DNA from: Escherichia coli
GTDB lineage: Bacteria > Pseudomonadota > Gammaproteobacteria > Enterobacterales > Enterobacteriaceae
Assembly: GCF_003334305.1 (NCBI RefSeq)
Contig: NZ_QOWS01000001.1
Reading direction: 5' to 3' (one strand)
DNA length: 64,000 bases
Shown here: one piece after another, positions 1 to 43,700 of the stretch
How the letters are laid out: the number at the start of each line of letters is the position of its first letter
Numbering within the stretch: position 1 is the first letter of the stretch
The notes under the pieces: generated by a model
What the model was told of the DNA's origin: nothing
Database searches by the model: none
Seen by the model: the letters and a program-made list of their open reading frames with translations, nothing else
Program-made: the position numbers and the translations under genes

Positions 1-2045
1 TATTTGCCCTCTGTGCCGTGGTTTACACTTTCTTCGCCACGCCGATTTATAGTGCCGACGCACTGGTACAAATCGAGCAAAACAGCGGCAATTCGTTAGT
101 GCAGGACATTGGTTCGGCATTAGCCAACAAACCGCCAGCATCGGACGCCGAGATCCAGTTGATTCGTTCGCGCCTGGTGCTTGGTAAAACGGTGGACGAT
201 CTCGACCTCGATATTGCAGTGAGCAAAAACACGTTCCCGATTTTCGGGGCGGGCTGGGATCGCCTGATGGGGCGTCAGAACGAGACGGTGAAAGTGACTA
301 CCTTTAACCGCCCGAAAGAGATGGCGGATCAGGTGTTTACACTTAATGTGCTGGACGATAAAAACTACACTCTGAGCAGCGATGGCGGCTTTAGCGCCCG
401 TGGGCAAGCGGGCCAGATGCTGACAAAAGAAGGCGTCACGCTGATGGTTGAAGCCATTCACGCCCGCCCGGGCAGTGAGTTTACCGTCACCAAATACTCC
501 ACGCTGGGGATGATCAATCAACTGCAAAACAGCCTGACGGTAACGGAGAACGGCAAAGACGCAGGCGTACTGAGCCTGACTTATACCGGTGAAGATCGCG
601 AACAGATCCGCGACATTCTTAACAGCATCGCCCGTAACTATCAGGAACAAAATATTGAGCGCAAATCGGCGGAAGCGTCGAAAAGCCTCGCTTTCCTTGC
701 GCAACAGTTACCGGAAGTACGTAGCCGCCTCGATGTTGCCGAAAACAAACTGAATGCCTTCCGTCAGGATAAAGATTCTGTTGATCTGCCGCTGGAAGCG
801 AAAGCGGTGCTCGATTCGATGGTGAACATCGACGCGCAGTTGAACGAACTGACCTTTAAAGAGGCGGAAATCTCCAAGCTGTACACCAAAGTTCACCCGG
901 CGTACCGCACGCTGCTGGAGAAACGTCAGGCGCTGGAAGACGAAAAAGCCAAACTTAATGGTCGCGTAACGGCGATGCCGAAAACCCAGCAGGAAATTGT
1001 CCGTCTGACCCGCGATGTCGAGTCTGGTCAGCAGGTCTATATGCAACTGCTGAATAAAGAGCAGGAACTGAAAATCACCGAAGCCAGCACCGTCGGCGAT
1101 GTGCGCATTGTTGACCCGGCAATCACCCAGCCTGGCGTGTTAAAACCGAAGAAAGGGCTGATTATCCTCGGCGCGATTATCCTCGGCCTGATGCTCTCTA
1201 TCGTGGGTGTGCTGCTGCGCTCGTTGTTTAATCGCGGCATCGAAAGCCCGCAGGTGCTGGAAGAACACGGTATCAGCGTCTATGCCAGCATCCCGCTGTC
1301 GGAATGGCAGAAAGCGCGCGATAGCGTCAAAACCATCAAAGGGGTTAAACGCTATAAACAGAGTCAGCTACTGGCGGTAGGGAATCCAACCGATCTGGCG
1401 ATTGAAGCCATCCGTAGTCTGCGTACCAGTCTGCACTTCGCGATGATACAGGCGCAGAACAATGTGTTGATGATGACCGGGGTTAGCCCGTCAATCGGTA
1501 AAACCTTTGTCTGCGCCAACCTGGCGGCGGTGATCAGCCAGACCAATAAACGGGTGTTGTTGATCGACTGCGATATGCGCAAAGGTTATACCCACGAGCT
1601 GTTGGGCACCAATAACGTTAATGGCCTGTCGGAAATTCTGATTGGTCAGGGCGATATTACTACCGCTGCTAAACCGACCTCTATTGCCAAATTTGACCTG
1701 ATCCCGCGCGGTCAGGTACCGCCAAATCCTTCTGAACTGTTGATGAGCGAACGCTTTGCCGAACTGGTGAACTGGGCGAGTAAAAACTACGACCTGGTGT
1801 TGATTGATACGCCGCCGATTCTGGCAGTGACCGATGCCGCAATTGTTGGTCGTCATGTCGGAACCACGTTAATGGTGGCGCGTTATGCGGTCAACACCTT
1901 GAAAGAAGTGGAAACCAGTCTGAGCCGCTTTGAGCAAAACGGTATTCCGGTGAAAGGGGTGATTCTGAACTCCATCTTCCGCCGCGCCAGCGCGTATCAG
2001 GATTATGGCTATTACGAATACGAATATAAGTCGGATGCGAAATAA
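1..2045 (+). CDS. wzc: Tyrosine autokinase Wzc (colanic acid export), 5' end truncated by window edge; reading frame is open from position 3
   Basis: ORF translation matches Wzc C-terminal two thirds including Walker A-like GKT/GKS motifs and C-terminal Tyr-rich tail (YQDYGYYEYEYKSDAK); frame open to window start. Confidence 0.9.
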   Translation, partial: FALCAVVYTFFATPIYSADALVQIEQNSGNSLVQDIGSALANKPPASDAEIQLIRSRLVLGKTVDDLDLDIAVSKNTFPIFGAGWDRLMGRQNETVKVTTFNRPKEMADQVFTLNVLDDKNYTLSSDGGFSARGQAGQMLTKEGVTLMVEAIHARPGSEFTVTKYSTLGMINQLQNSLTVTENGKDAGVLSLTYTGEDREQIRDILNSIARNYQEQNIERKSAEASKSLAFLAQQLPEVRSRLDVAENKLNAFRQDKDSVDLPLEAKAVLDSMVNIDAQLNELTFKEAEISKLYTKVHPAYRTLLEKRQALEDEKAKLNGRVTAMPKTQQEIVRLTRDVESGQQVYMQLLNKEQELKITEASTVGDVRIVDPAITQPGVLKPKKGLIILGAIILGLMLSIVGVLLRSLFNRGIESPQVLEEHGISVYASIPLSEWQKARDSVKTIKGVKRYKQSQLLAVGNPTDLAIEAIRSLRTSLHFAMIQAQNNVLMMTGVSPSIGKTFVCANLAAVISQTNKRVLLIDCDMRKGYTHELLGTNNVNGLSEILIGQGDITTAAKPTSIAKFDLIPRGQVPPNPSELLMSERFAELVNWASKNYDLVLIDTPPILAVTDAAIVGRHVGTTLMVARYAVNTLKEVETSLSRFEQNGIPVKGVILNSIFRRASAYQDYGYYEYEYKSDAK

Positions 2046-2046
2046 C

Positions 2047-2165
2047 GACATCCGCTGTCGGATGCGATGCTGACGCATCTTATCCGACCTACCTTCACGC
2101 CGCATCCGGCAAGCAAACCAGCTCCGTAGGCCGGATAAGGCGCTCACGCCGCATCCGGCAACAGA
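2047..2165. repeat. Cluster of REP (repetitive extragenic palindromic) units / BIME between wzc and wcaA
   Basis: Imperfect palindromes of the form GCCGGATGCGGCGTGAACGCCTTATCCGGCCTAC repeated in alternating orientation. Confidence 0.8.
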
Positions 2166-2222
2166 ACCCGTAAACAAGCTTATAAACCGGCAGAACATCT
2201 CGACACTCCGGGAGAACAACCT

Positions 2223-3062
2223 ATGAAAGACAATCCGCTGATTTCAATCTATATGCCGACCTGGAACCGCCAACAACTGGCGATTCGGGCGATAAAATCG
2301 GTCCTGCGCCAGGACTACAGCAACTGGGAGATGATCATCGTGGATGATTGCTCCACCTCCTGGGAACAACTGCAACAGTACGTCACTGCCCTCAACGATC
2401 CGCGTATTACCTACATTCACAACGACATTAACAGCGGGGCGTGCGCGGTACGTAACCAGGCGATTATGCTGGCGCAAGGGGAATACATTACCGGGATCGA
2501 TGACGATGATGAATGGACGCCCAACCGCCTGAGCGTCTTCCTCGCCCATAAACAGCAACTGGTCACTCACGCCTTTTTGTACGCTAACGACTACGTATGC
2601 CAGGGAGAAGTTTATTCCCAACCAGCAAGCTTACCACTGTATCCCAAATCGCCGTACTCACGCCGCCTGTTCTATAAACGCAATATCATTGGCAATCAGG
2701 TTTTTACCTGGGCGTGGCGTTTCAAAGAGTGCTTGTTCGATACCGAACTGAAAGCAGCACAGGATTACGACATCTTCCTGCGGATGGTGGTGGAGTATGG
2801 CGAACCGTGGAAAGTGGAAGAGGCGACGCAGATCCTGCATATCAATCACGGTGAAATGCAGATCACCTCGTCACCGAAAAAATTCTCCGGGTACTTCCAC
2901 TTTTACCGCAAGCACAAAGATAAATTTGACCGTGCAAGCAAAAAATATCAGCTGTTTACCCTCTACCAGATCCGCAATAAACGTATGACCTGGCGCACTT
3001 TGCTGACGCTGCTGTCGGTGCGTAACGGCAAACGTCTGGCTGATGGTATTCGGGGGCGCTAA
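2223..3062 (+). CDS. wcaA: Colanic acid glycosyltransferase WcaA (GT2)
   Basis: 279 aa ORF, GT2 N-terminal motifs (ISIYMPTWNR, DDDDEW), position after wzc. Confidence 0.9.
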   Translation: MKDNPLISIYMPTWNRQQLAIRAIKSVLRQDYSNWEMIIVDDCSTSWEQLQQYVTALNDPRITYIHNDINSGACAVRNQAIMLAQGEYITGIDDDDEWTPNRLSVFLAHKQQLVTHAFLYANDYVCQGEVYSQPASLPLYPKSPYSRRLFYKRNIIGNQVFTWAWRFKECLFDTELKAAQDYDIFLRMVVEYGEPWKVEEATQILHINHGEMQITSSPKKFSGYFHFYRKHKDKFDRASKKYQLFTLYQIRNKRMTWRTLLTLLSVRNGKRLADGIRGR

Positions 3063-3064
3063 AG

Positions 3065-3553
3065 ATGCTGGAAGATCTGCGTGCCAACAGCTGGAGTTTA
3101 CGCCCGTGCTGCATGGTTCTTGCCTATCGTGTTGCTCATTTTTGTTCGGTGTGGCGCAAAAAGAACGTCCTCAACAATCTGTGGGCGGCCCCGCTGCTGG
3201 TGCTGTATCGCATTATCACCGAATGCTTTTTCGGTTATGAAATCCAGGCCGCCGCGACCATTGGCCGCCGCTTTACTATCCATCACGGTTACGCCGTAGT
3301 GATCAATAAAAACGTGGTAGCGGGGGATGATTTCACCATTCGCCACGGCGTCACTATCGGCAATCGTGGTGCCGATAACATGGCATGTCCACACATTGGC
3401 AACGGCGTCGAACTCGGTGCCAACGTCATTATTCTTGGTGATATCACGCTTGGTAACAACGTCACCGTGGGCGCGGGCAGCGTGGTGCTCGACTCTGTCC
3501 CGGACAACGCGCTGGTGGTGGGAGAAAAAGCGCGAGTGAAGGTAATTAAATGA
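3065..3553 (+). CDS. wcaB: Colanic acid acetyltransferase WcaB (hexapeptide-repeat)
   Basis: 162 aa ORF with left-handed beta-helix hexapeptide repeats; synteny. Confidence 0.9.
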   Translation: MLEDLRANSWSLRPCCMVLAYRVAHFCSVWRKKNVLNNLWAAPLLVLYRIITECFFGYEIQAAATIGRRFTIHHGYAVVINKNVVAGDDFTIRHGVTIGNRGADNMACPHIGNGVELGANVIILGDITLGNNVTVGAGSVVLDSVPDNALVVGEKARVKVIK

Positions 3554-4767
3554 ATATTCTGCAATTTAATGTGCGACTGGCGGAAGGCGGGGCGGCAGGT
3601 GTGGCGTTAGATCTCCATCAGCGTGCGCTGCAACAGGGGCTGGCGTCACATTTTGTCTACGGCTACGGCAAAGGCGGCAAAGAGAGCGTCAGCCATCAGA
3701 ACTATCCGCAGGTCATCAAACATACGCCGCGGATGACCGCGATGGCGAACATTGCGTTGTTTCGTCTGTTTAATCGCGATCTGTTCGGCAATTTCAATGA
3801 GTTATATCGCACCATTACTCGCACCCCGGGGCCGGTGGTTCTGCATTTTCATGTGCTGCACAGCTACTGGCTAAATCTTAAGAGCGTGGTGCGCTTTTGC
3901 GAAAAGGTGAAAAACCATAAACCGGATGTCACTCTGGTCTGGACGCTGCACGACCACTGGAGCGTTACCGGGCGCTGCGCCTTTACCGACGGTTGTGAAG
4001 GCTGGAAAACGGGCTGCCAGAAATGCCCGACCTTAAATAACTATCCGCCGGTGAAGATTGATCGCGCGCACCAGCTGGTGGCGGGCAAACGCCAGTTATT
4101 TCGTGAGATGCTGGCGCTGGGCTGTCAGTTTATTTCCCCCAGCCAGCATGTGGCTGACGCTTTCAATAGTCTGTACGGGCCAGGGCGTTGCCGGATTATC
4201 AATAATGGTATTGATATGGCAACCGAAGCGATTCTGGCGGACTTGCCTCCGGTGCGCGAAACCCAGGGCAAGCCGAAAATCGCGGTGGTGGCGCATGACC
4301 TGCGTTACGACGGCAAGACTAACCAGCAACTGGTGCGTGAGATGATGGCGCTGGGCGACAAAATTGAACTGCATACCTTCGGTAAGTTCTCGCCGTTCAC
4401 CGCTGGCAACGTGGTTAATCACGGCTTTGAAACCGACAAACGTAAGCTGATGAGCGCGCTCAATCAGATGGATGCGCTGGTGTTCAGTTCTCGCGTCGAT
4501 AACTACCCGCTGATTTTGTGTGAGGCGCTATCGATTGGCGTGCCGGTGATTGCCACCCATAGCGATGCGGCGCGTGAAGTGCTGCAAAAATCCGGCGGTA
4601 AAACCGTCAGTGAAGAAGAGGTGCTGCAACTGGTGCAGTTAAGCAAACCGGAAATCGCGCAGGCGATATTTGGTACCACGCTGGCTGAGTTCAGCCAACG
4701 CAGCCGCGCCGCCTACAGTGGACAACAGATGCTGGAGGAGTATGTCAACTTCTATCAGAATCTGTAG
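3550..4767 (+). CDS. wcaC: Colanic acid glycosyltransferase WcaC
   Basis: 405 aa ORF, overlapping stop/start with wcaB, synteny. Confidence 0.9.
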   Translation: MNILQFNVRLAEGGAAGVALDLHQRALQQGLASHFVYGYGKGGKESVSHQNYPQVIKHTPRMTAMANIALFRLFNRDLFGNFNELYRTITRTPGPVVLHFHVLHSYWLNLKSVVRFCEKVKNHKPDVTLVWTLHDHWSVTGRCAFTDGCEGWKTGCQKCPTLNNYPPVKIDRAHQLVAGKRQLFREMLALGCQFISPSQHVADAFNSLYGPGRCRIINNGIDMATEAILADLPPVRETQGKPKIAVVAHDLRYDGKTNQQLVREMMALGDKIELHTFGKFSPFTAGNVVNHGFETDKRKLMSALNQMDALVFSSRVDNYPLILCEALSIGVPVIATHSDAAREVLQKSGGKTVSEEEVLQLVQLSKPEIAQAIFGTTLAEFSQRSRAAYSGQQMLEEYVNFYQNL

Positions 4768-19715: not shown

Positions 19716-21110
19716 ATGCCATTTAAAAAACTCTCCCGACGCACCTTCCTGACGGCAAGCTCCGCGCTTGCCTTCCTCCATACCCCTTTCGCTCGCGCAC
19801 TTCCCGCCCGACAAAGCGTTAACATTAACGACTACAACCCACACGACTGGATCGCCTCATTTAAACAAGCCTTCGGTGAAGGGCAAACGGTCGTCGTGCC
19901 TGCCGGATTGGTTTGCGACAATATCAACACCGGCATCTTCATTCCTCCTGGCAAAACGTTACACATCCTTGGAAGCCTGCGCGGCAACGGCAGAGGGCGA
20001 TTTGTCTTACAGGACGGTAGCCAGGTGACAGGGGAGGAGGGCGGCAGTATGCATAACATCACCCTGGATGTGCGTGGCTCTGACTGCACCATCAAAGGGC
20101 TGGCGATGAGCGGCTTTGGCCCGGTAACGCAGATTTATATCGGCGGCAAAAACAAACGGGTCATGCGCAACCTGACCATCGATAACCTCACTGTCAGCCA
20201 CGCTAATTACGCCATCTTACGCCAGGGATTTCATAACCAGATAATCGGTGCCAACATCACCAATTGTAAGTTCAGCGACTTACAGGGCGATGCCATTGAA
20301 TGGAACGTGGCGATTAACGACCGTGATATTTTGATCTCCGACCATGTCATCGAGCGCATCAACTGTACTAACGGAAAAATCAATTGGGGCATTGGCATAG
20401 GCCTTGCGGGGAGTACTTATGATAATAATTACCCGGAAGATCAGGCAGTGAAAAACTTTGTCGTGGCGAATATCACGGGATCGGATTGTCGGCAGTTGAT
20501 CCATGTTGAAAATGGTAAACATTTTGTTATTCGTAATATCAAAGCCCGCAATATCACGCCGGATTTCAGTAAGAAAGCAGGTATTGATAACGCCACAGTC
20601 GCTATTTACGGTTGTGACAATTTCGTGATTGATAATATTGAAATGATTAATAGCGCCGGGATGTTAATCGGCTATGGGGTAATTAAAGGCAAATATCTCT
20701 CGATACCGCAAAATTTCCGAGTGAATAATATTCAACTGGATAATACCCACCTTGCTTACAAATTGCGCGGTATCCAAATCTCCGCCGGGAATGCTGTCTC
20801 CTTTGTGGCGCTGACTAACATTGAGATGAAGCGTGCGTCGCTTGAGCTACACAATAAACCGCAACACCTTTTTATGCGAAATATCAAGGTGATGCAGGAA
20901 TCCTCTGTTGGACCAGCATTGAGCATGAACTTCGACATGCGCAAAGACGTTCGCGGCGTTTTTATGGCAAAGCGTGAAACGCTGCTTTCACTCACGAATA
21001 TTCATGCCGTGAATGAAAAAGGGCAAAGCTCCGTCGATATCGACAGGATTAATCACCATATTGTTAATGTGGAAAAGATTAACTTTAGATTGCCGGAACG
21101 GAGGGAGTAG
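19716..21110 (+). CDS. wcaM: Colanic acid biosynthesis protein WcaM (secreted, beta-helix-like)
   Basis: 464 aa ORF with N-terminal signal-like sequence; last gene of wca operon. Confidence 0.9.
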
Positions 21111-21267
21111 ATTTGCGACCATTCATAAACTTACTGGATATAATGTTCTAAAAGATTATAATCCTTACGCTAACTGTTAAAGCTGGGGCTGGGCAGCATT
21201 GACTACTCAGGGAAGGTACTCATCTTTATCTTGTGTTTCTTACGTAACAACCAGACTAAAGTGATTT

Positions 21268-22263
21268 ATGAACGATAACGTTTTGCTCATAGGAGCTTCC
21301 GGATTCGTAGGAACCCGACTACTTGAAACGGCAATTGCTGACTTTAATATCAAGAACCTGGACAAACAGCAGAGCCATTTTTATCCAGAAATTACACAGA
21401 TTGGCGATGTTCGCGATCAACAGGCACTCGACCAGGCGTTAGCTGGTTTTGACACTGTTGTACTGCTGGCAGCGGAACATCGCGATGATGTCAGCCCTAC
21501 TTCTCTCTATTATGATGTCAATGTTCAGGGTACCCGCAACGTGCTGGCAGCCATGGAAAAAAATGGCGTTAAAAATATCATCTTTACCAGTTCCGTTGCT
21601 GTTTATGGTTTGAACAAACACAATCCTGACGAAAACCATCCACACGATCCTTTCAACCACTACGGCAAAAGTAAGTGGCAGGCAGAGGAAGTGCTGCGTG
21701 AATGGTATAACAAAGCACCAACAGAACGTTCATTAACTATCATCCGTCCTACCGTTATCTTCGGTGAACGCAACCGCGGTAACGTCTATAACTTGCTGAA
21801 ACAGATCGCTGGCGGCAAGTTTATGATGGTGGGTGCAGGAACTAACTATAAGTCCATGGCTTATGTTGGAAACATTGTTGAGTTTATCAAGTACAAACTG
21901 AAGAATGTTGCCGCAGGTTATGAGGTTTATAACTACGTTGATAAGCCAGATCTGAACATGAACCAGTTGGTTGCGGAAGTTGAACAAAGCCTGAACAAAA
22001 AGATCCCTTCTATGCACTTGCCTTACCCACTAGGAATGCTGGGTGGATATTGCTTTGATATCCTGAGCAAAATTACGGGCAAAAAATACGCAGTCAGCTC
22101 TGTGCGCGTGAAAAAATTCTGCGCAACAACACAGTTTGACGCAACGAAAGTGCATTCTTCAGGTTTTGTGGCACCGTATACGCTGTCGCAAGGTCTGGAT
22201 CGAACTCTGCAGTATGAATTCGTCCATGCCAAAAAAGACGACATAACGTTTGTTTCTGAGTAA
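21268..22263 (+). CDS. gne: NAD-dependent UDP-N-acetylglucosamine 4-epimerase (Gne-type) encoded immediately upstream of galF
   Basis: 331 aa ORF, N-terminal GASGFVGTRLLE Rossmann motif, SDR epimerase family; position between wcaM and galF as in GalNAc-containing E. coli O types (from memory). Confidence 0.7.
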   Translation: MNDNVLLIGASGFVGTRLLETAIADFNIKNLDKQQSHFYPEITQIGDVRDQQALDQALAGFDTVVLLAAEHRDDVSPTSLYYDVNVQGTRNVLAAMEKNGVKNIIFTSSVAVYGLNKHNPDENHPHDPFNHYGKSKWQAEEVLREWYNKAPTERSLTIIRPTVIFGERNRGNVYNLLKQIAGGKFMMVGAGTNYKSMAYVGNIVEFIKYKLKNVAAGYEVYNYVDKPDLNMNQLVAEVEQSLNKKIPSMHLPYPLGMLGGYCFDILSKITGKKYAVSSVRVKKFCATTQFDATKVHSSGFVAPYTLSQGLDRTLQYEFVHAKKDDITFVSE

Positions 22264-33482: not shown

Positions 33483-33500
33483 TTTTTGAGCTTAAAGAAA

Positions 33501-33536
33501 GCGGGCAGGGTGGTCACACCGTGCCCGTTTTTTTTG
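33501..33536 (+). terminator. Rho-independent terminator after wzz
   Basis: GCGGGCAGGGTG-gtca-CACCGTGCCCG hairpin (one mismatch) followed by T8. Confidence 0.75.
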
Positions 33537-33572
33537 TCGGATGCGATGCCGGCGTATCTTATCCAGCTTACA
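33536..33572. repeat. Single REP-like unit downstream of wzz
   Basis: GTCGGATGCGATGCCGGCGTATCTTATCCAGCTTACA closely resembles the REP unit at 2055-2092. Confidence 0.6.
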
Positions 33573-33675
33573 TATGTTGAGAAAATTTGTAGGCACGATA
33601 AACCTGCACACCGGGCAATGACGGATGAGTTGTTGCCGGAAGTGACAGCAACATCACATCCACCTACCCCGCAAC

Positions 33676-33783
33676 TCACTGATGCCGCGTGCGCAGAATC
33701 ACTATCACTGTTGTTAAATCCAGAATTTGAACCTGCAACAGCACCAGCAGGCGATACATCAAATCAGGCACCTCATTGGTTAG
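33676..33783 (-). pseudogene. hisI: Degenerate 3'-terminal fragment of hisI (last ~35 codons plus stop), displaced upstream of the his-linked polysaccharide cluster
   Basis: Minus-strand translation ...LTNEVPDLMYRLLVLLQVQILDLTTVIVILRTRHQ* parallels the HisI C-terminus; also ~85% nucleotide similarity to 46790-46860 inside intact hisI. Confidence 0.7.
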
Positions 33784-34365
33784 TATGTACCTTCGCAAAA
33801 CGGGATTACTCACAGCGAACATGGCGTAATTTTGTACAAATCTGTTTTTTTTATCAGCAGATTATTTAGCAACCAGGCAAAAAATGTCATGCCTTTCTTC
33901 ATTTTTACTTATATATCAATTGATTATAATTAATTGGTTTGGTAAATGTTTAAGATGTGTATTATTTGAGTAATCCATTAATTAGTCGGCTTTTATATTT
34001 TTTTTCCCAGCATGCAACGCTATAATCTGCGAAGATTTTTTTGTGGAATGTGCAGTGTAGAGGCATGAGTCGTTTATCCCACCAGTCGCAACATAACGCC
34101 GTCGTCGTGTGCAAAGAGCTGTCAAGCCCGAACGCGCGCTGCTTCTCTGGCGGCGAATACGATGTCTCTTCTTATCTTTCCTCGTATCGTAAATGCTCCT
34201 TTCTGATGGTTGCTGGCATCGGTAAATCACTTGATTCGTTTTTTTTGATGGCGGTGAGAGCATGTGTTTTGCCCCGCGTAAATGAGAAGGTCCTGATGGT
34301 TACTCTGGCGGCAAATGTGGAAATTGTGGGGCGTTTCGTGGCCTGGTGAGGAACAGATACATATT

Positions 34366-34403
34366 AAAAGCAGAGATATGCCCTGAGACATATCTCTGCT
34401 TTT
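34366..34403. terminator. Strong hairpin (13-bp stem) flanked by A-run and T-run; candidate bidirectional terminator / sRNA 3' end
   Basis: AAAAGCAGAGATATG-ccctgaga-CATATCTCTGCTTTT read directly. Confidence 0.55.
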
Positions 34404-34533
34404 AGGTTTTCAGGATGCCCGTTCCGTAAGGATGGTTTTTGAGACCGCTGAGTGAAGGGGCTGCCGACAGTCTGAAGCGAAAGAGGGTGGCGTTTAGCCT
34501 GGAGCACTACGCATTTTGGTTGCGATAGCCAAT

Positions 34534-34545
34534 GGCGGTAGCGTA
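34534..34545 (+). promoter_or_regulatory. ops element (GGCGGTAGCGTA) upstream of manC of the his-linked cluster
   Basis: Exact GGCGGTAG core 89 nt upstream of manC start; JUMPstart-like flanks. Confidence 0.8.
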
Positions 34546-34622
34546 CCTGAAAAAGGCCATTCAACCCGTTGGTCGATTGATTGATAGTAAAATAAAACAA
34601 TTATTTATTTAAGGATTTCATT

Positions 34623-36038
34623 ATGTTACTTCCTGTAATTATGGCTGGTGGTACCGGCAGTCGTCTCTGGCCGATGTCACGCGAGCTTTATCCGAAACAG
34701 TTCCTCCGCCTGTTCGGGCAGAACTCCATGCTGCAGGAAACCATCACCCGACTCTCGGGTCTTGAAATCCATGAACCGATGGTCATCTGTAACGAAGAGC
34801 ATCGCTTCCTGGTGGCTGAACAGCTGCGCCAGCTAAATAAGCTGTCGAATAACATTATACTTGAGCCAGTCGGGCGCAACACCGCGCCGGCCATCGCCCT
34901 GGCGGCCCTTCAGGCCACCCGCTACGGTGACGACCCGCTGATGCTGGTTCTCGCCGCCGACCACATCATCAATAACCAGTCGGCCTTCCACGACGCTATC
35001 CGGGTCGCCGAGCAGTATGCTGATGAAGGTCATCTGGTCACCTTCGGTATCGTGCCGAATGCCCCGGAAACTGGCTACGGTTACATTCAGCGCGGCGTGG
35101 CGCTCACCGATAGTGCCCATTCCGCGTACCAGGTGGCCCGCTTTGTGGAGAAGCCGGATCGCGAGCGCGCCGAGGCTTACCTCGCCTCCGGGGAGTACTA
35201 CTGGAACAGCGGCATGTTTATGTTCCGCGCCAAGAAATACCTCATCGAGCTGGCCAAATACCGTCCGGATATCCTGGAAGCCTGCCAGGCTGCGGTGAAT
35301 GCCGCCGATAATGGCAGCGATTTCATCAATATCCCACATGATATTTTCTGCGAGTGCCCGGATGAGTCCGTGGACTACGCCGTTATGGAGAAAACCGCTG
35401 ATGCGGTGGTGGTCGGTCTCGATGCTGACTGGAGCGACGTTGGCTCCTGGTCCGCACTATGGGAGGTCAGCCCGAAAGACGAGCAGGGCAACGTCCTTAG
35501 TGGCGACGCGTGGGTACACAACAGCGAAAACTGCTACATCAACAGCGACGAGAAGCTAGTGGCGGCCATTGGCGTAGAGAATCTGGTGATTGTCAGCACT
35601 AAGGACGCCGTGCTGGTGATGAATCGCGAGCGTTCCCAGGACGTGAAGAAGGCGGTCGAGTTCCTCAAGCAGAACCAGCGCAGCGAGTACAAGCGCCACC
35701 GTGAGATTTACCGCCCCTGGGGCCGTTGCGACGTAGTGGTCCAGACCCCGCGCTTCAACGTCAACCGCATCACGGTGAAACCAGGCGGTGCCTTCTCGAT
35801 GCAGATGCACCACCATCGCGCCGAGCATTGGGTTATTCTCGCCGGCACCGGTCAGGTGACGGTCAACGGTAAGCAGTTCCTGCTGTCCGAGAACCAGTCC
35901 ACCTTTATTCCGATTGGCGCCGAGCACTGCCTGGAAAACCCTGGCTGTATTCCGCTGGAAGTGCTGGAGATCCAGTCGGGGGCGTACCTTGGCGAGGACG
36001 ACATTATTCGTATTAAAGACCAGTATGGTCGTTGCTAA
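34623..36038 (+). CDS. manC: Mannose-1-phosphate guanylyltransferase (O-antigen copy)
   Basis: 471 aa; [11 protein letters not shown] motif; GC-rich relative to flanking genes; paralogue of cpsB. Confidence 0.9.
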
Positions 36039-36061
36039 TTATTTTCGGGACAAGATGCAGA

Positions 36062-37438
36062 ATGACACAGTTAACTTGTTTTAAGGCTTATGACATCCGT
36101 GGTGAACTGGGTGAGGAACTGAACGAGGACATCGCCTACCGTATCGGTCGCGCCTACGGCGAATTTCTGAAACCCGGGAAGATAGTGGTGGGGGGCGATG
36201 TGCGCCTCACAAGCGAGTCGCTGAAGCTGGCGCTGGCCCGCGGGTTAATGGACGCCGGTACCGACGTGCTGGACATCGGCCTGAGCGGTACCGAAGAGAT
36301 TTACTTTGCCACCTTCCACCTTGGGGTAGATGGTGGCATCGAGGTGACCGCGAGCCACAATCCTATGAACTACAACGGCATGAAGCTGGTGCGCGAGAAT
36401 GCGAAGCCCATCAGCGGCGACACCGGCCTGCGGGATATCCAGCGCCTGGCGGAGGAAAACCAGTTCCCGCCAGTGGACCCGGCGCGTCGCGGGACCCTGA
36501 GCAAGATATCGGTACTGAAGGAGTATGTTGACCATCTGATGAGCTACGTGGACTTCTCGAACTTCACCCGTCCACTGAAGTTGGTGGTGAACTCCGGAAA
36601 CGGGGCTGCGGGGCACGTGATTGATGAGGTGGAGAAACGCTTCGCGGCGGCTGGGGTGCCGGTAACCTTTATCAAGGTGCATCACCAGCCGGATGGCCAT
36701 TTCCCTAACGGTATCCCGAATCCGCTGCTGCCGGAGTGCCGCCAGGATACCGCCGACGCGGTGCGCGAGCATCAGGCAGACATGGGGATTGCCTTTGACG
36801 GCGACTTCGATCGCTGCTTCCTGTTCGATGACGAAGCTTCGTTTATCGAGGGGTATTACATTGTCGGCCTGCTGGCTGAGGCGTTCCTGCAGAAGCAGCC
36901 GGGAGCGAAAATCATTCACGACCCGCGCTTGACGTGGAACACGGTAGACATCGTGACCCGCAACGGCGGCCAGCCGGTGATGTCGAAGACGGGGCATGCG
37001 TTCATCAAGGAGCGGATGCGTCAGGAAGACGCTATCTACGGCGGGGAGATGAGTGCGCACCATTACTTCCGCGATTTCGCCTACTGCGATAGCGGGATGA
37101 TCCCGTGGCTGCTGGTGGCGGAGCTGCTGTGTCTGAAGAACAGCTCGCTGAAATCGCTGGTGGCGGACCGCCAGAGGGCGTTCCCTGCGTCGGGAGAGAT
37201 CAACCGCAAGCTAAGGAATGCGGCTGAGGCGATCGCCCGCATCCGGGCGCAGTATGAGCCGGCGGCTGCACACATCGACACAACGGACGGGATCAGTATT
37301 GAATACCCTGAATGGCGCTTTAACCTGCGCACGTCTAACACCGAGCCGGTGGTGCGTCTGAACGTTGAGTCCAGAGCTGATGTGGCGCTTATGAATGAAA
37401 AAACGACCGAGCTGTTACACCTGTTAAGCGGGGAATAA
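36062..37438 (+). CDS. manB: Phosphomannomutase (O-antigen copy)
   Basis: 458 aa from [14 protein letters not shown]; TASHNP active-site motif; paralogue of cpsG. Confidence 0.9.
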
Positions 37439-37439
37439 G

Positions 37440-38234
37440 GTGAGAGATTTACTAACGACGATTTATCGTTATCGGGGATTTATCTGGAGCAGTGTTAAAC
37501 GTGATTTTCAGGCGCGCTATCAAACTAGTATGCTGGGCGCACTATGGCTCGTTTTACAACCGCTCTCTATGATTCTGGTCTATACCCTGGTTTTTTCCGA
37601 GGTGATGAAGGCAAGAATGCCCGATAATACCGGGTCGTTTGCCTATAGTATTTATCTCTGTTCCGGGGTACTGACCTGGGGATTATTTACTGAGATGCTG
37701 GATAAAGGTCAGAGCGTATTTATTAACAATGCTAATCTGATCAAGAAACTCAGTTTTCCGAAAATCTGTCTGCCGATCATCGTGACGTTATCGGCGGTGC
37801 TAAATTTCGCGATTATTTTCAGTCTGTTTCTAATTTTTATCATTGTCACCGGTAACTTCCCCGGCTGGCTCTTTCTCTCGGTGATACCGGTCCTGCTTTT
37901 GCAAATCCTGTTTGCCGGTGGGCTGGGGATGATCCTTGGTGTCATGAACGTCTTTTTCAGGGATGTGGGGCAACTGGTTGGCGTTGCGCTGCAATTCTGG
38001 TTTTGGTTCACACCCATTGTTTATGTACTGAATTCATTACCTGCATGGGCAAAAAATCTGATGATGTATAACCCGATGACTCGGATCATGCAATCTTATC
38101 AGTCCATCTTCGCCTATCATCTGGCCCCCAACTGGTATTCGCTATGGCCAGTATTGGCTCTCGCCATTATTTTCTGTGTCATCGGTTTCAGGATGTTCCG
38201 CAAGCATGCGGCGGATATGGTGGATGAATTATAA
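37440..38234 (+). CDS. wzm: O-polysaccharide ABC transporter permease Wzm
   Basis: 264 aa, ABC-2 type permease with about 6 TM helices; GTG start. Confidence 0.85.
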   Translation: MRDLLTTIYRYRGFIWSSVKRDFQARYQTSMLGALWLVLQPLSMILVYTLVFSEVMKARMPDNTGSFAYSIYLCSGVLTWGLFTEMLDKGQSVFINNANLIKKLSFPKICLPIIVTLSAVLNFAIIFSLFLIFIIVTGNFPGWLFLSVIPVLLLQILFAGGLGMILGVMNVFFRDVGQLVGVALQFWFWFTPIVYVLNSLPAWAKNLMMYNPMTRIMQSYQSIFAYHLAPNWYSLWPVLALAIIFCVIGFRMFRKHAADMVDEL

Positions 38235-39448
38235 TGAGTTATATCAGAGTAAATAATGTCGGTAAGGCGTATCGCCAGTATCACTCAAAGACCGGGAGAC
38301 TGATCGAATGGTTATCCCCTCTGAATACCAAACGCCATAACTTGAAATGGATCCTCCGCGAGATTAATTTCGAAGTCGCTCCGGGCGAGGCTGTCGGTAT
38401 TATCGGTATCAACGGTGCAGGCAAGAGTACCCTGCTTAAACTCATAACCGGGACGTCCAGGCCGACGACTGGAGAAATTGAAATCTCCGGACGTGTCGCT
38501 GCATTACTCGAATTGGGGATGGGGTTTCATTCTGATTTCACTGGCCGGCAGAATGTTTATATGTCTGGGCAACTGTTGGGGTTATCGTCAGAGAAAATAA
38601 CTGAACTGATGCCGCAAATTGAAGAGTTTGCTGAGATTGGGGACTATATCGATCAGCCTGTGCGCGTCTACTCCAGTGGGATGCAAGTTCGATTAGCTTT
38701 TAGTGTAGCGACGGCTATCCGTCCTGATGTGCTAATTATCGATGAGGCATTATCTGTTGGGGATGCATATTTCCAGCATAAAAGCTTTGAGCGTATTCGA
38801 AAATTTCGTCAGGAAGGGACCACGCTGTTGCTGGTATCCCATGATAAACAAGCGATCCAAAGCATTTGCGACCGGGCCATTTTATTGAATAAAGGCCAAA
38901 TTGAAATGGAAGGTGAACCTGAAGCAGTGATGGATTATTACAATGCGCTTCTGGCCGATAAACAAAATCAGTCCATTAAACAAGTTGAGCATAATGGTAA
39001 AACGCAAACTGTTTCAGGCACTGGTGAGGTGACTATCTCTGAGGTTCATCTTCTCGATGAACAGGGCAATGTGACTGAATTTGTTTCGGTAGGGCATCGT
39101 GTCAGCTTGCAGGTCAACGTTGAGGTCAAGGACGATATTCCTGAGCTTGTTGTCGGATATATGATTAAGGATCGACTTGGACAGCCGATTTTCGGGACCA
39201 ATACGTACCATCTCAATCAGACACTCACCTCCCTGAAAAAAGGAGAAAAGCGTTCGTTCTTATTTTCTTTCGATGCGAGATTGGGGGTTGGCTCCTATTC
39301 TGTCGCTGTCGCGTTGCATACTTCCAGTACGCACCTCGGCAAAAACTATGAATGGCGCGATCTGGCCGTGGTATTCAACGTCGTTAACACGGAACAACAA
39401 GAGTTTGTCGGCGTGTCCTGGTTGCCGCCTGAACTGGAGATTTCTTAA
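38234..39448 (+). CDS. wzt: O-polysaccharide ABC transporter ATP-binding protein Wzt with C-terminal extension (putative carbohydrate-binding domain)
   Basis: 404 aa; Walker A GINGAGKST, signature YSSGMQVRLAF, Walker B LIIDEA; about 150 aa C-terminal extra domain. Confidence 0.85.
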   Translation: MSYIRVNNVGKAYRQYHSKTGRLIEWLSPLNTKRHNLKWILREINFEVAPGEAVGIIGINGAGKSTLLKLITGTSRPTTGEIEISGRVAALLELGMGFHSDFTGRQNVYMSGQLLGLSSEKITELMPQIEEFAEIGDYIDQPVRVYSSGMQVRLAFSVATAIRPDVLIIDEALSVGDAYFQHKSFERIRKFRQEGTTLLLVSHDKQAIQSICDRAILLNKGQIEMEGEPEAVMDYYNALLADKQNQSIKQVEHNGKTQTVSGTGEVTISEVHLLDEQGNVTEFVSVGHRVSLQVNVEVKDDIPELVVGYMIKDRLGQPIFGTNTYHLNQTLTSLKKGEKRSFLFSFDARLGVGSYSVAVALHTSSTHLGKNYEWRDLAVVFNVVNTEQQEFVGVSWLPPELEIS

Positions 39449-40725
39449 TGGGTTCGTCGTTTTATCGTTCATTTGAAGAACGACACAGAGGTTCGGTTGA
39501 AGAAATCAAGCGCCGCTTGAGTTTTTATTTACCTTTTCTTGCAGGTCTGAAGGACATTTATCCTGATGGCGTGATTGCGGATATTGGTTGCGGACGTGGC
39601 GAATGGTTGGAGATCCTGACTGAAAATGGCATTGCGAACATCGGCGTCGATCTCGATGATGGCATGCTGGCGCGCGCCAGGGAGGCCGGACTGAATGTGC
39701 AGAAAATGGATTGTCTGCAGTTTCTGCAAAGTCAGGCGGATCAGAGCCTGATAGCGTTGACCGGTTTTCATATTGCTGAGCATTTGCCTTTTGAGGTCCT
39801 GCAGCAGCTCGTCATGCATACCCTACGGGTGCTGAAACCAGGTGGTTTGCTGATCCTCGAAACGCCGAACCCGGAGAATGTAAACGTCGGCACCTGTTCA
39901 TTTTATATGGATCCAACGCATAATCATCCTCTGCCACCGCCACTGCTTGAGTTTTTACCTATTCATTATGGTTTTAACAGAGCAATTACCGTTCGTCTGC
40001 AGGAAAAAGAGGTTCTTCAATCTCCGGATGCAGCCGTTAATTTGGTCGATGTACTCAAAGGGGTGAGCCCCGACTACAGCATCATTGCTCAGAAAGCAGC
40101 GCCAACAGATATTCTTGAACGCTTTGACACCCTGTTTACCCAGCAGTATGGTCTGACGCTGGATGCTCTGAGCAACCGTTACGATGCGATTTTGCGCCAA
40201 CAGTTTTCGTCCGTTGTCTCACGGCTGGAGACGTTGAACCAAACCTATATGCAACAGATAAGCCAAATGTCAGAGACTATTCAGACTTTGCAAGGTGAGG
40301 TTGACGATCTGAGTCATGTCATCGATCAGAACCATCAGCTTCATCAGCAAATGGCGGATTTACATAACAGTCGTTCATGGCGTATTACTCAACCACTACG
40401 CTGGTTGTCTTTGCAACGTCAATTATTACGTCAGGAAGGGGCTAAAGTGCGAGCCCGTAGGGCTGCGAAAAAAATATTGCGCAAAGGGATGGCGCTCTCG
40501 CTGGTCTTTTTCCATCGTTACCCTAAGTCTAAGGTTTATCTGTTTAAGGTTCTGAGAAAAACTGGCTGCTATACATTGCTACAACGTTTGTTCCAACGCG
40601 TAATGCTGGTGCAATCTGACACGATGATGATGCAGTCCAGAAGATATGATGTGGGTACTGAAGAAATGACAAGTCGCGCGATGAGTATTTATAACGAATT
40701 AAAAAATAAAAATACGGAGAAATAA
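39448..40725 (+). CDS. wbdD: Chain-terminating SAM-dependent methyltransferase WbdD (methyltransferase-only, O8 / Klebsiella O5 type) with C-terminal coiled coil
   Basis: 425 aa; SAM-binding motif DIGCGRGEW; no kinase domain; coiled-coil and basic amphipathic C-terminus. Confidence 0.7.
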   Translation: MGSSFYRSFEERHRGSVEEIKRRLSFYLPFLAGLKDIYPDGVIADIGCGRGEWLEILTENGIANIGVDLDDGMLARAREAGLNVQKMDCLQFLQSQADQSLIALTGFHIAEHLPFEVLQQLVMHTLRVLKPGGLLILETPNPENVNVGTCSFYMDPTHNHPLPPPLLEFLPIHYGFNRAITVRLQEKEVLQSPDAAVNLVDVLKGVSPDYSIIAQKAAPTDILERFDTLFTQQYGLTLDALSNRYDAILRQQFSSVVSRLETLNQTYMQQISQMSETIQTLQGEVDDLSHVIDQNHQLHQQMADLHNSRSWRITQPLRWLSLQRQLLRQEGAKVRARRAAKKILRKGMALSLVFFHRYPKSKVYLFKVLRKTGCYTLLQRLFQRVMLVQSDTMMMQSRRYDVGTEEMTSRAMSIYNELKNKNTEK

Positions 40726-40727
40726 CG

Positions 40728-43700
40728 ATGCGTATTGTCATAGATTTACAAGGCGCACAGACGGAAAGCCGCTTTCGTGGCATCGGTCGTTATAGTATCG
40801 CAATCGCCAGAGGCATAATCAGAAATAACAGCCGGCATGAGATTTTCATCGCGCTATCCGCCATGCTGGATGAGTCGATTGCGGATATTAAGGCGCAATT
40901 TGCCGATCTCCTGCCGGCAGAAAATATAGTCGTATGGCATGCCGTAGGCCCTGTTCGTGCGATGGACCAAGGTAATGAATGGCGTCGGGAGAGCGCAGAA
41001 CTGATTCGGGAAGCGTTTCTTGAATCATTGTGTCCAGATGTCGTTTTCATTACGAGCTTGTTTGAAGGTCATGTCGACGATGCGGCTACATCGGTACACA
41101 AATTTAGTCGTCAGTATAAAGTAGCCGTACTGCACCACGATCTTATCCCCCTCGTGCAGGCGGAAACCTATCTGCAGGACGATGTATACAAACCCTACTA
41201 CTTACAGAAAGTTGAGTGGTTAAAAAACGCTGACCTTTTGTTGACTAACTCTGCTTATACCGCACAGGAAGCGATCGAGCATCTGCATTTACAGGGCGAT
41301 CATGTGCAGAATATTGCAGCCGCAGTCGATTCTCAGTTTTGTATGGCGGAGGTGACAGCGAGCGAAAAAGAGACCGTCCTTGGCCATTACGGTATTCAGC
41401 GCGAGTTCATGTTGTATGCGCCCGGAGGATTTGACTCAAGGAAAAACTTTAAACGGTTGATTGAGGCCTATGCCGGGCTCAGTGATGCCTTACGTCGCAG
41501 TCATCAACTGGTTATCGTCAGTAAGCTTTCCATCGGTGATCGTCAGTATCTGGAATCCCTTGCGTCAGGTAATGGTTTACAGCAAGGCGAACTGGTACTC
41601 ACTGGTTATGTGCCGGAAGATGAGCTGATCCAGCTCTATCGCCTATGTAAGCTGTTCATCTTTGCTTCACTACATGAAGGTTTTGGGTTGCCGGTTCTGG
41701 AAGCAATGTCGTGCGGTGCGCCGGTGATTGGCTCAAATGTCACCAGTATTCCTGAAGTCATCGGTAATCCTGAGGCATTATTCGACCCGTATTCTGTCTC
41801 TTCCATGAGGGATAAGATCGCGCAATGTTTGACTGATGATACCTTCCTCGCGCGTCTGAAAGAAATGGCGCAGCAGCAAGCGCGTAATTTCTCTTGGGAT
41901 AAAGCTGCGGTGACTGCTCTGGAGGCTTTCGAAAAGATCGCGGTAGAAGACACCGGTACTGCGCAGGTTTTGCCTGAAGCTTTGATTCAGAAGATCCTTG
42001 CTATCACACAAGGGCAGCCAGATGACCGCGATCTGCGCTTGTGCGCAACGGCCATTGATTACAATCTGAAAACGGCAGAACTTTATCAAATCGACGATAA
42101 ATCGCTGAACTGGCGTGTGGAAGGCCCATTCGATAGCTCATATAGTCTGGCGTTGGTCAACCGCGAATTTGCCCGGGCACTCTCAGCCGATGGTGTAGAG
42201 GTCTTATTGCATTCCACTGAAGGACCGGGTGATTTTGCCCCAGATGCCTCCTTTATGGCACAGTCGGAAAATAGTGATCTTCTGGCATTTTATAATCAAT
42301 GTCAGACCCGCAAGAGTAACGAAAAGATAGATATTCTTAGCAGAAATATCTATCCACCGCGGGTTACCAAAATGGATGCCAAAGTAAAATTCCTTCATTG
42401 TTATGCTTGGGAAGAAACGGGCTTTCCGCAACCGTGGATCAATGAATTTAATCGGGAACTTGACGGAGTGCTGTGTACTTCGGAACATGTTCGTAAAATA
42501 TTGATTGATAACGGACTGAATGTGCCCGCATTTGTTGTTGGCAATGGCTGTGACCATTGGCTCAATATCCCAGCCGAGACGACAAAAGATGTGGATCACG
42601 GAACATTCCGTTTCCTGCACGTCTCTTCTTGTTTCCCACGCAAAGGGATACAGGCAATGCTTCAGGCTTGGGGGAAGGCGTTCACTCGTCGTGACAATGT
42701 TATCTTAATCATTAAGACTTTTAACAATCCGCACAATGAAATTGACGCATGGCTGGCTCAGGCCCAGGCTCAATTCATAGACTATCCCAAAGTTGAAGTG
42801 ATCAAAGAGGATATATCAGCCACCGAGCTTAAAGGGCTTTATGAAAGCTGTGATGTTTTGGTTGCTCCAGGTTGCGCTGAAGGCTTTGGTTTACCTATTG
42901 CTGAAGCAATGCTGAGTGGGCTACCGGCTATCGTCACCAATTGGAGCGGGCAACTTGATTTTGTTAATTCACAAAATTCATGGCTGGTTGACTATCAGTT
43001 CACTCGGGTAAAAACGCACTTTGGTCTGTTTTCCTCAGCCTGGGCCAGTGTGGATATTGACAACTTAACAGATGCATTAAAAGCGGCAGCCTCAACCGAT
43101 AAATCAGTGCTGCGTGACATGGCCAATGCTGGTCGCGAGCTTCTTCTGCAGCAGTTTACCTGGAAAGCGGTGGCTGATCGTTCTTGCCAGGCGGTCAAGA
43201 CTCTGCGTGCGCATATTGATATTGCACAGCATCGGGCGCGCATTGGCTGGTTGACGACCTGGAACACGAAATGTGGGATCGCAACCTATTCCCAGCATCT
43301 GGTGGAAAGCGCACCTCATGGCGCGGATGTTGTTTTTGCTCCCCAGGTCAGCGCTGGCGATCTTGTGTGTGCAGACGAAGAGTTTGTACTTCGCAACTGG
43401 ATTGTAGGTAAAGAGAGCAACTATCTGGAAAACCTCCAGCCACACATTGATGCTCTGAAACTCGATGTCATTGTGATCCAATTCAACTATGGATTCTTTA
43501 ATCATCGAGAACTGTCGGTGTTTATTCGTCGCCAGCATGACGCCGGTCGTTCAGTTGTTATGACGATGCACTCAACTGTGGATCCGCTGGAAAAAGAGCC
43601 GAGCTGGAATTTCCGTCTTGCTGAAATGAAAGAGGCGCTGGCACTTTGCGACCGGTTGTTGGTGCATTCGATTGCCGATATGAACCGCCTTAAAGATTTA

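Follow-up and report, generated by a model that had tools for sequence, protein, structure and literature searches.

The open reading frame between wcaM and galF in a 64,000-nucleotide stretch of Escherichia coli DNA (hereafter the window; contig NZ_QOWS01000001.1 of assembly GCF_003334305.1) very probably is gnu, the gene for the 4-epimerase that converts Und-PP-GlcNAc into Und-PP-GalNAc, and would serve to prime with GalNAc the O46/O134-type polymer specified by the galF-gnd cluster (Table 1). Both the gene and its context are already known. The reading frame, its position, the protein motifs, the identity to the protein of strain Sakai, and the co-occurrence with the cluster were computed here, and the literature supplies the enzyme activity and the presence of GalNAc in the O46 polymer.

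Table 1. Positions of the features discussed, numbered from the first letter of the window.
Feature	Position	Strand	Basis
wcaM, upstream flank, 464 aa; closes the colanic acid cluster	19716..21110	+	ORF; RefSeq on 100%-identical DNA
Candidate sigma-70 promoter of gnu, TGGATA-16-TATAAT, ~105 bp 5' of the ATG	21135..21162	+	Consensus scan, 10/12 matches
gnu (probable), N-acetyl-alpha-D-glucosaminyl-diphospho-undecaprenol 4-epimerase, EC 5.1.3.26, 331 aa	21268..22263	+	ORF, Pfam, Sakai identity, RefSeq name, motifs
galF, downstream flank, 297 aa	22506..23399	+	ORF; RefSeq on 100%-identical DNA
JUMPstart RNA element, start of the O-unit operon	23658..23696	+	Rfam RF01707, 56.7 bits against a gathering score of 35
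ops sequence GGCGGTAG within JUMPstart	23685	+	Sequence match
ATP-grasp amidoligase, candidate for D-allothreonine attachment to GlcA	23707..24552	+	RefSeq name; assignment to this gene putative
wzx, O46/O134-family flippase	24554..25855	+	RefSeq on 100%-identical DNA
Family 2 glycosyltransferase	25857..26762	+	RefSeq name; sub-threshold NCBIfam GT2 matches
wzy, O46/O134-family polymerase, intact, 379 aa	26759..27898	+	ORF; RefSeq in STEC005
Glycosyltransferase, RefSeq "beta-1,6-N-acetylglucosaminyltransferase"	27855..28688	+	Family label only; O46 is tabulated without GlcNAc
Second family 2 glycosyltransferase (RefSeq start at 28691)	28685..29419	+	ORF; RefSeq; NCBIfam search
ugd, UDP-GlcA supply (RefSeq start at 31193)	31166..32359	+	ORF; RefSeq
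Second ops octamer GGCGGTAG, ~80 bp 5' of manC	34534..34541		Sequence match
wbdC of the O8 cluster, Und-PP-GlcNAc 3-alpha-mannosyltransferase	45588..46703	+	ORF; RefSeq name in STEC005, R1, and 05-3629

In the ORF listing of the window, the reading frame opens with ATG and encodes 331 amino acids, and the earlier note's placement of an SDR epimerase of that length between wcaM and galF was borne out at exactly these coordinates by a Pfam match to Epimerase (PF01370, E=1.2e-30), accompanied by one to 3Beta_HSD (E=4.9e-27). The NAD-binding GxxGxxG motif is present as G9ASGFVG15 and the catalytic YxxxK motif as Y132GKSK136, with S108/S109 as the Ser/Thr; Y132 and K136 align with the catalytic Tyr and Lys of solved SDRs (8rdg), and the sequence places the protein in the extended short-chain dehydrogenase/reductase superfamily. 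A chance reading frame can be dismissed, because the identical protein occurs on >1000 contigs and DNA of the gnu region is present in 1324 of the 5426 complete E. coli genomes that formed the base of the survey. The gene keeps 95-99% identity in ~1300 genomes that span many serogroups, and its GC content (0.445) lies between those of the flanking housekeeping-like genes (~0.5) and the O-unit genes (~0.3), a combination that fits a conserved accessory module and not a serogroup-specific gene.

The protein is identical over 331/331 residues to ECs_2847 of E. coli O157:H7 Sakai, and the two genes occupy the same position between wcaM and galF. The Sakai gene is one that we take to be Z3206 of EDL933, the enzyme assayed by Rush et al. 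in 2010. RefSeq holds the identical protein as WP_000999466.1 under the name N-acetyl-alpha-D-glucosaminyl-diphospho-ditrans,octacis-undecaprenol 4-epimerase. This name is not derived from a profile model, since no NCBIfam model reaches its cutoff with the protein (the best, HpnA, scores 95 bits against a cutoff of 368). A search of the PDB found no close solved structure, the best matches being the SDR 8rdg and NSDHL 6jkg (E ~2e-17). The nearest sequence neighbors, HpnA and NSDHL 6jkg, are SDRs with a link to lipid substrates, and GalE is not among them; this likeness is suggestive only.

The gene just 5' of galF was first named gne and presumed to encode a UDP-GlcNAc 4-epimerase (Wang et al. 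2002, as given in PMC3682973). Taken in that original sense, the gene in the window would encode a soluble enzyme whose product, UDP-GalNAc, is then used by WecA or by a glycosyltransferase. In addition to the 2002 assignment at this locus, which stands in the title of the paper as listed in PMC3682973, such a reading draws on the Sakai record, where the older label "gne / UDP-galactose 4-epimerase" persists, on the resemblance of the protein to SDRs that epimerize NDP-sugars, and on the lack of a membrane-association signal. Neither a membrane anchor nor an amphipathic helix stood out convincingly in a scan of the protein (hydropathy over 19 residues peaks at 1.45, at the Rossmann strand, and the helical moment at 0.46); no transmembrane segment and no strong amphipathic helix is predicted for an enzyme whose substrate would be lipid-linked. 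The reading as a UDP-GlcNAc 4-epimerase is nevertheless very unlikely in view of the biochemistry. As summarized in PMC3682973, Rush et al. (2010) reported the O157 enzyme, taken here as identical, to be inactive on UDP-GlcNAc and to turn the Und-PP-GlcNAc made by WecA into Und-PP-GalNAc. The same source assigns the protein to clade D, well apart from the GalE/Gne proteins of clade A; Cunneen et al. (2013) renamed clade D gnu with the O157 enzyme as its type member, while conceding that detailed studies of the clade are few. Later reviews and structural papers restate the activity of the O157 enzyme and adopt the Gnu assignment (PMC7685785, PMC9680116), and current RefSeq uses it too. True gne (clade A, GalE-like) is described as lying inside O-antigen clusters and supplying GalNAc for non-initial positions (PMC3682973, PMC7685785), and serogroup O86 is stated to require both the gene upstream of galF and a true gne within the cluster, which indicates that the two have differing functions (PMC3682973).

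Comparison with the characterized epimerases points in the same direction. Gnu shares with the Gne/GalE proteins of clade A (e.g., Y. enterocolitica O8 Gne, E. coli O86 Gne2, and E. coli GalE) the SDR fold, the motifs, and the C4 gluco/galacto epimerization, but their substrate is a nucleotide sugar and that of Gnu a lipid-linked sugar. Similarity of the GalE type over the full length of the protein was not found, the matches being partial and confined to the N-terminal half: the GalE equivalog TIGR01179 reaches 71.4 bits, far below its cutoff of 262.3, over residues 5-170 only, and the GalE chains in the PDB match at E ~1e-11 over residues 45-167 only. The location is also not that of gne or galE (the O-antigen cluster or the gal operon, respectively), the gene lying 5' of galF and outside the cluster. 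A further group, GnaB (clade B; WbpP, WbgU, and TviC), comprises UDP-GlcNAcA 4-epimerases that are likewise SDR 4-epimerases and were once likewise called Gne, but PMC3682973 describes these as always adjoining a WbpO-type dehydrogenase gene and as associated with GalNAcA. A GnaB identity was rejected for the window gene, whose neighbors are wcaM and galF and with which no WbpO-type UDP-GlcNAc 6-dehydrogenase gene is annotated in the cluster; GalNAcA is not expected in the polymer. For the probable gnu, therefore, the earlier note was right to expect a GalNAc-associated epimerase at this position upstream of galF, as in other E. coli, and the part that has to be given up is the UDP-GlcNAc substrate together with the name gne, given the 331/331 identity to the O157 Sakai protein and the RefSeq designation as Gnu. 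The assay of UDP-GlcNAc/UDP-GalNAc interconversion that it proposed would be expected to give a negative result without refuting the presence of GalNAc, because the O157 enzyme acts on Und-PP-GlcNAc and not on UDP-GlcNAc.

The polymer that Gnu would serve is specified by the first of two O-polysaccharide loci that lie in tandem in the window, an O46/O134-family Wzx/Wzy cluster (23707..29419) and an O8-family ABC-transporter polymannose cluster (34623..46703). The first cluster is a block of low GC content (0.28-0.32) encoding six proteins, and all six genes are intact. Its assignment to the O46/O134 family rests on the RefSeq annotation of identical DNA, since NCBIfam gave no matches for the wzx, wzy, ATP-grasp, and GT14-like proteins of the window. 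The earlier note had treated the galF-gnd polymer as uncharacterized, which does not hold: the cluster belongs to a family with published structures, the O46 and O134 clusters being described as near-identical (PMC4732683) and the paper on their structures naming D-glucuronoyl-D-allothreonine in its title (Perepelov 2015, as cited in PMC7685785). The ATP-grasp amidoligase, whose gene opens the O-unit operon, is the obvious candidate to form this amide, and the presence of that ligase together with ugd downstream fits the D-glucuronoyl-D-allothreonine of the O46/O134 structure. In strain H15 the wzy gene (25648..26772 of the H15 locus) is annotated as frameshifted, and it is intact in both the window and STEC005; the H15 frameshift suggests that polymerization of the second polymer has been lost in some O8 lineages.

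The prediction that the galF-gnd polymer contains GalNAc agrees with the tabulated composition and can be sharpened to GalNAc as the first sugar. Table S2 of Cunneen et al. (PMC3682973) lists O46 with one main-chain GalNAc and 0 GlcNAc, scores it "need gnu", and records gnu as present and correct. According to the RefSeq annotation of identical DNA, the cluster (23707..29419) has no gene for an initiating transferase and no gne. Because GalNAc is the sole HexNAc, the unit depends on WecA, and neither an initiating transferase gene nor gne is available, GalNAc is best read as the WecA/Gnu-derived first sugar and should be the initiating sugar of the repeat unit; with three glycosyltransferases encoded, the unit would comprise four sugars. 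This context resembles that of O157:H7, where a Wzx/Wzy O-unit cluster likewise lacks an initiating transferase gene and the unit contains a single GalNAc. The gene itself is no different from that of O157:H7, and the window departs from it in the O46/O134-type cluster downstream and in the O8 polymannose cluster that is also present between wzzB and hisIE.

The survey of complete genomes ties the gene to this cluster. The O46/O134 cluster occurs in 17 of the 5426 genomes, and gnu lies contiguously upstream of galF in 17/17, a figure to be read against a background frequency of 1324/5426 and for genomes that are not phylogenetically independent. An O8-family cluster is also found between wzzB and hisIE in 8 of these 17, and at least 9 are without it; in three others that were examined (NCTC11121, FDAARGOS_1372, and SCU-485), hisIE directly follows wzzB and gnu is still present. 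The span from gnu to wzx falls into three sequence grades, of about 100%, 98.3%, and 96.9% identity, and the co-occurrence of gene and cluster holds over all three grades and over the two genomic backgrounds. Conversely, strains R1 and 05-3629 carry the same O8 cluster with other galF-gnd Wzx/Wzy clusters, and both have no gnu and a K-12-like spacer of 174 bp. Since gnu accompanies the galF-gnd cluster in 17/17 genomes with or without O8 and is absent from R1 and 05-3629, it travels with the galF-gnd cluster and not with O8; this pattern supports what the earlier note said, that polymannose synthesis can do without the gene. The galF-gnd locus of R1 is an rfbBDAC-containing cluster and that of 05-3629 a cluster with wecB and WbuC-family genes, and the galF-gnd locus varies independently under a constant O8 cluster.

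The same genomes bear on whether gnu could be a mere passenger, carried along in the flank of the O-antigen locus, and neither expressed nor needed for the polymer. Over 115 serogroups the association of gnu/gne with GalNAc is described in PMC3682973 as very good and imperfect, and the 10 cases there in which a gnu or gne gene is present though not predicted speak for this reading. The gene also stands outside the operon controlled by JUMPstart, lying 5' of galF with the JUMPstart element 3' of it, and its promoter is a consensus match, one of a number of sigma-70-like sites in the upstream region that does not exceed the expectation from shuffled sequence in the same scan. A promoter of its own at 21135..21162 is plausible for gnu on the strength of that match. 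Against a passenger role, the reading frame is unbroken and matches a functional allele exactly, O46 is tabulated as needing gnu (Cunneen Table S2, PMC3682973), the co-occurrence of 17/17 spans differing backgrounds and sequence grades, and six of six cluster genes in the window are intact, so that this explanation is extremely improbable and a working GalNAc-priming gene is the preferred reading.

The names wcaM and galF for the genes flanking gnu are those given by RefSeq to 100%-identical DNA of strains H15 and STEC005; gnu starts 157 bp after the wcaM ORF and ends 242 bp before the galF ORF. K-12, which according to the earlier note has no gene at this position, indeed has none, the spacer between wcaM (b2043) and galF (b2042) of MG1655 measuring 174 bp. 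That spacer has in common with the two spacers flanking gnu ~16 nt past the wcaM stop and the sequence from the galF ribosome-binding site onward, and no more, and no repeat or mobile-element scar was seen in the alignment of the three.

The mechanism that is proposed begins with WecA, encoded elsewhere in the genome, which would make Und-PP-GlcNAc; Gnu, as an NAD-dependent extended SDR, would then epimerize it at C4 to Und-PP-GalNAc. In SDR epimerases, bound NAD+ takes a hydride from C4, giving a 4-keto intermediate, and hands it back on the other face, and Tyr132, Lys136, and Ser108 or Ser109 of Gnu would be the catalytic residues in this general scheme. Und-PP-GalNAc would next be extended by three sugars, presumably through the three glycosyltransferases of the cluster, and one of the added sugars would be GlcA, which Ugd supplies and on which the ATP-grasp ligase probably forms the D-allothreonine amide. 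The finished unit would be flipped by Wzx and polymerized by Wzy, with WzzB setting the chain length. In this scheme gnu would act as a separate module with a promoter of its own, accompanying galF-gnd clusters whose first sugar is GalNAc; the promoter, the glycosyltransferase order, and the role of the ATP-grasp protein are parts that we infer.

The second locus provides the background against which this priming would take place. The O8-family cluster contains manC, manB, wzm, wzt, a methyltransferase gene, a large glycosyltransferase gene, a GT4 gene, and wbdC, and both loci occur together in 8 of the 5426 complete genomes. Because an ops element lies upstream of each, both clusters look RfaH-dependent, and gnu is outside either operon. 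The interval between wzzB and manC (33483..34622; 1.1 kb) contains no long ORF; its counterpart in related genomes carries annotations for a hypothetical gene of 285 bp and a short, partial, opposite-strand pseudogene. Recombination at the O8 cluster junction may have left this interval as a scar. The annotation of WbdC as an Und-PP-GlcNAc 3-alpha-mannosyltransferase means that Gnu and WbdC would use one lipid intermediate in the window strain. It is possible, though doubtful, that Gnu, WbdC, and the synthesis of enterobacterial common antigen draw on one pool of Und-PP-GlcNAc in such a way that the level of the separately transcribed gnu acts as a valve, setting how much O46/O134-type polymer the cell surface carries relative to O8 polymannan.

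The architecture of the his region can be likened to the E. coli O8:K40 type. Amor and Whitfield reportedly described in 1997 an O8:K40 strain with a colanic acid cluster, a galF-gnd Wzx/Wzy cluster, and an O8 ABC-transporter cluster by his. Unlike in O8:K40, the galF-gnd cluster of the window is of the O46/O134 type and would be GalNAc-initiated, and so it brings gnu along; the K40 unit has GlcNAc and is not known to have GalNAc.

These results have several consequences for the annotation and study of this region. The label "gne" at the locus upstream of galF should read gnu, the name in use since 2013, and the galF-gnd cluster found here is a serogroup-typed one (O46/O134) with a published structure. 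In-silico serotyping of strains that carry both loci would return two O calls. Interconversion of UDP-GlcNAc and UDP-GalNAc is the wrong readout for Gnu, and a lipid-linked substrate is the right one. From the presence of gnu one can predict specifically that the polymer is initiated with GalNAc, which goes beyond the mere prediction of GalNAc content. Finally, competition between Gnu and WbdC for Und-PP-GlcNAc in strains combining O8 with O46/O134 would be a small point of envelope physiology of mild interest.
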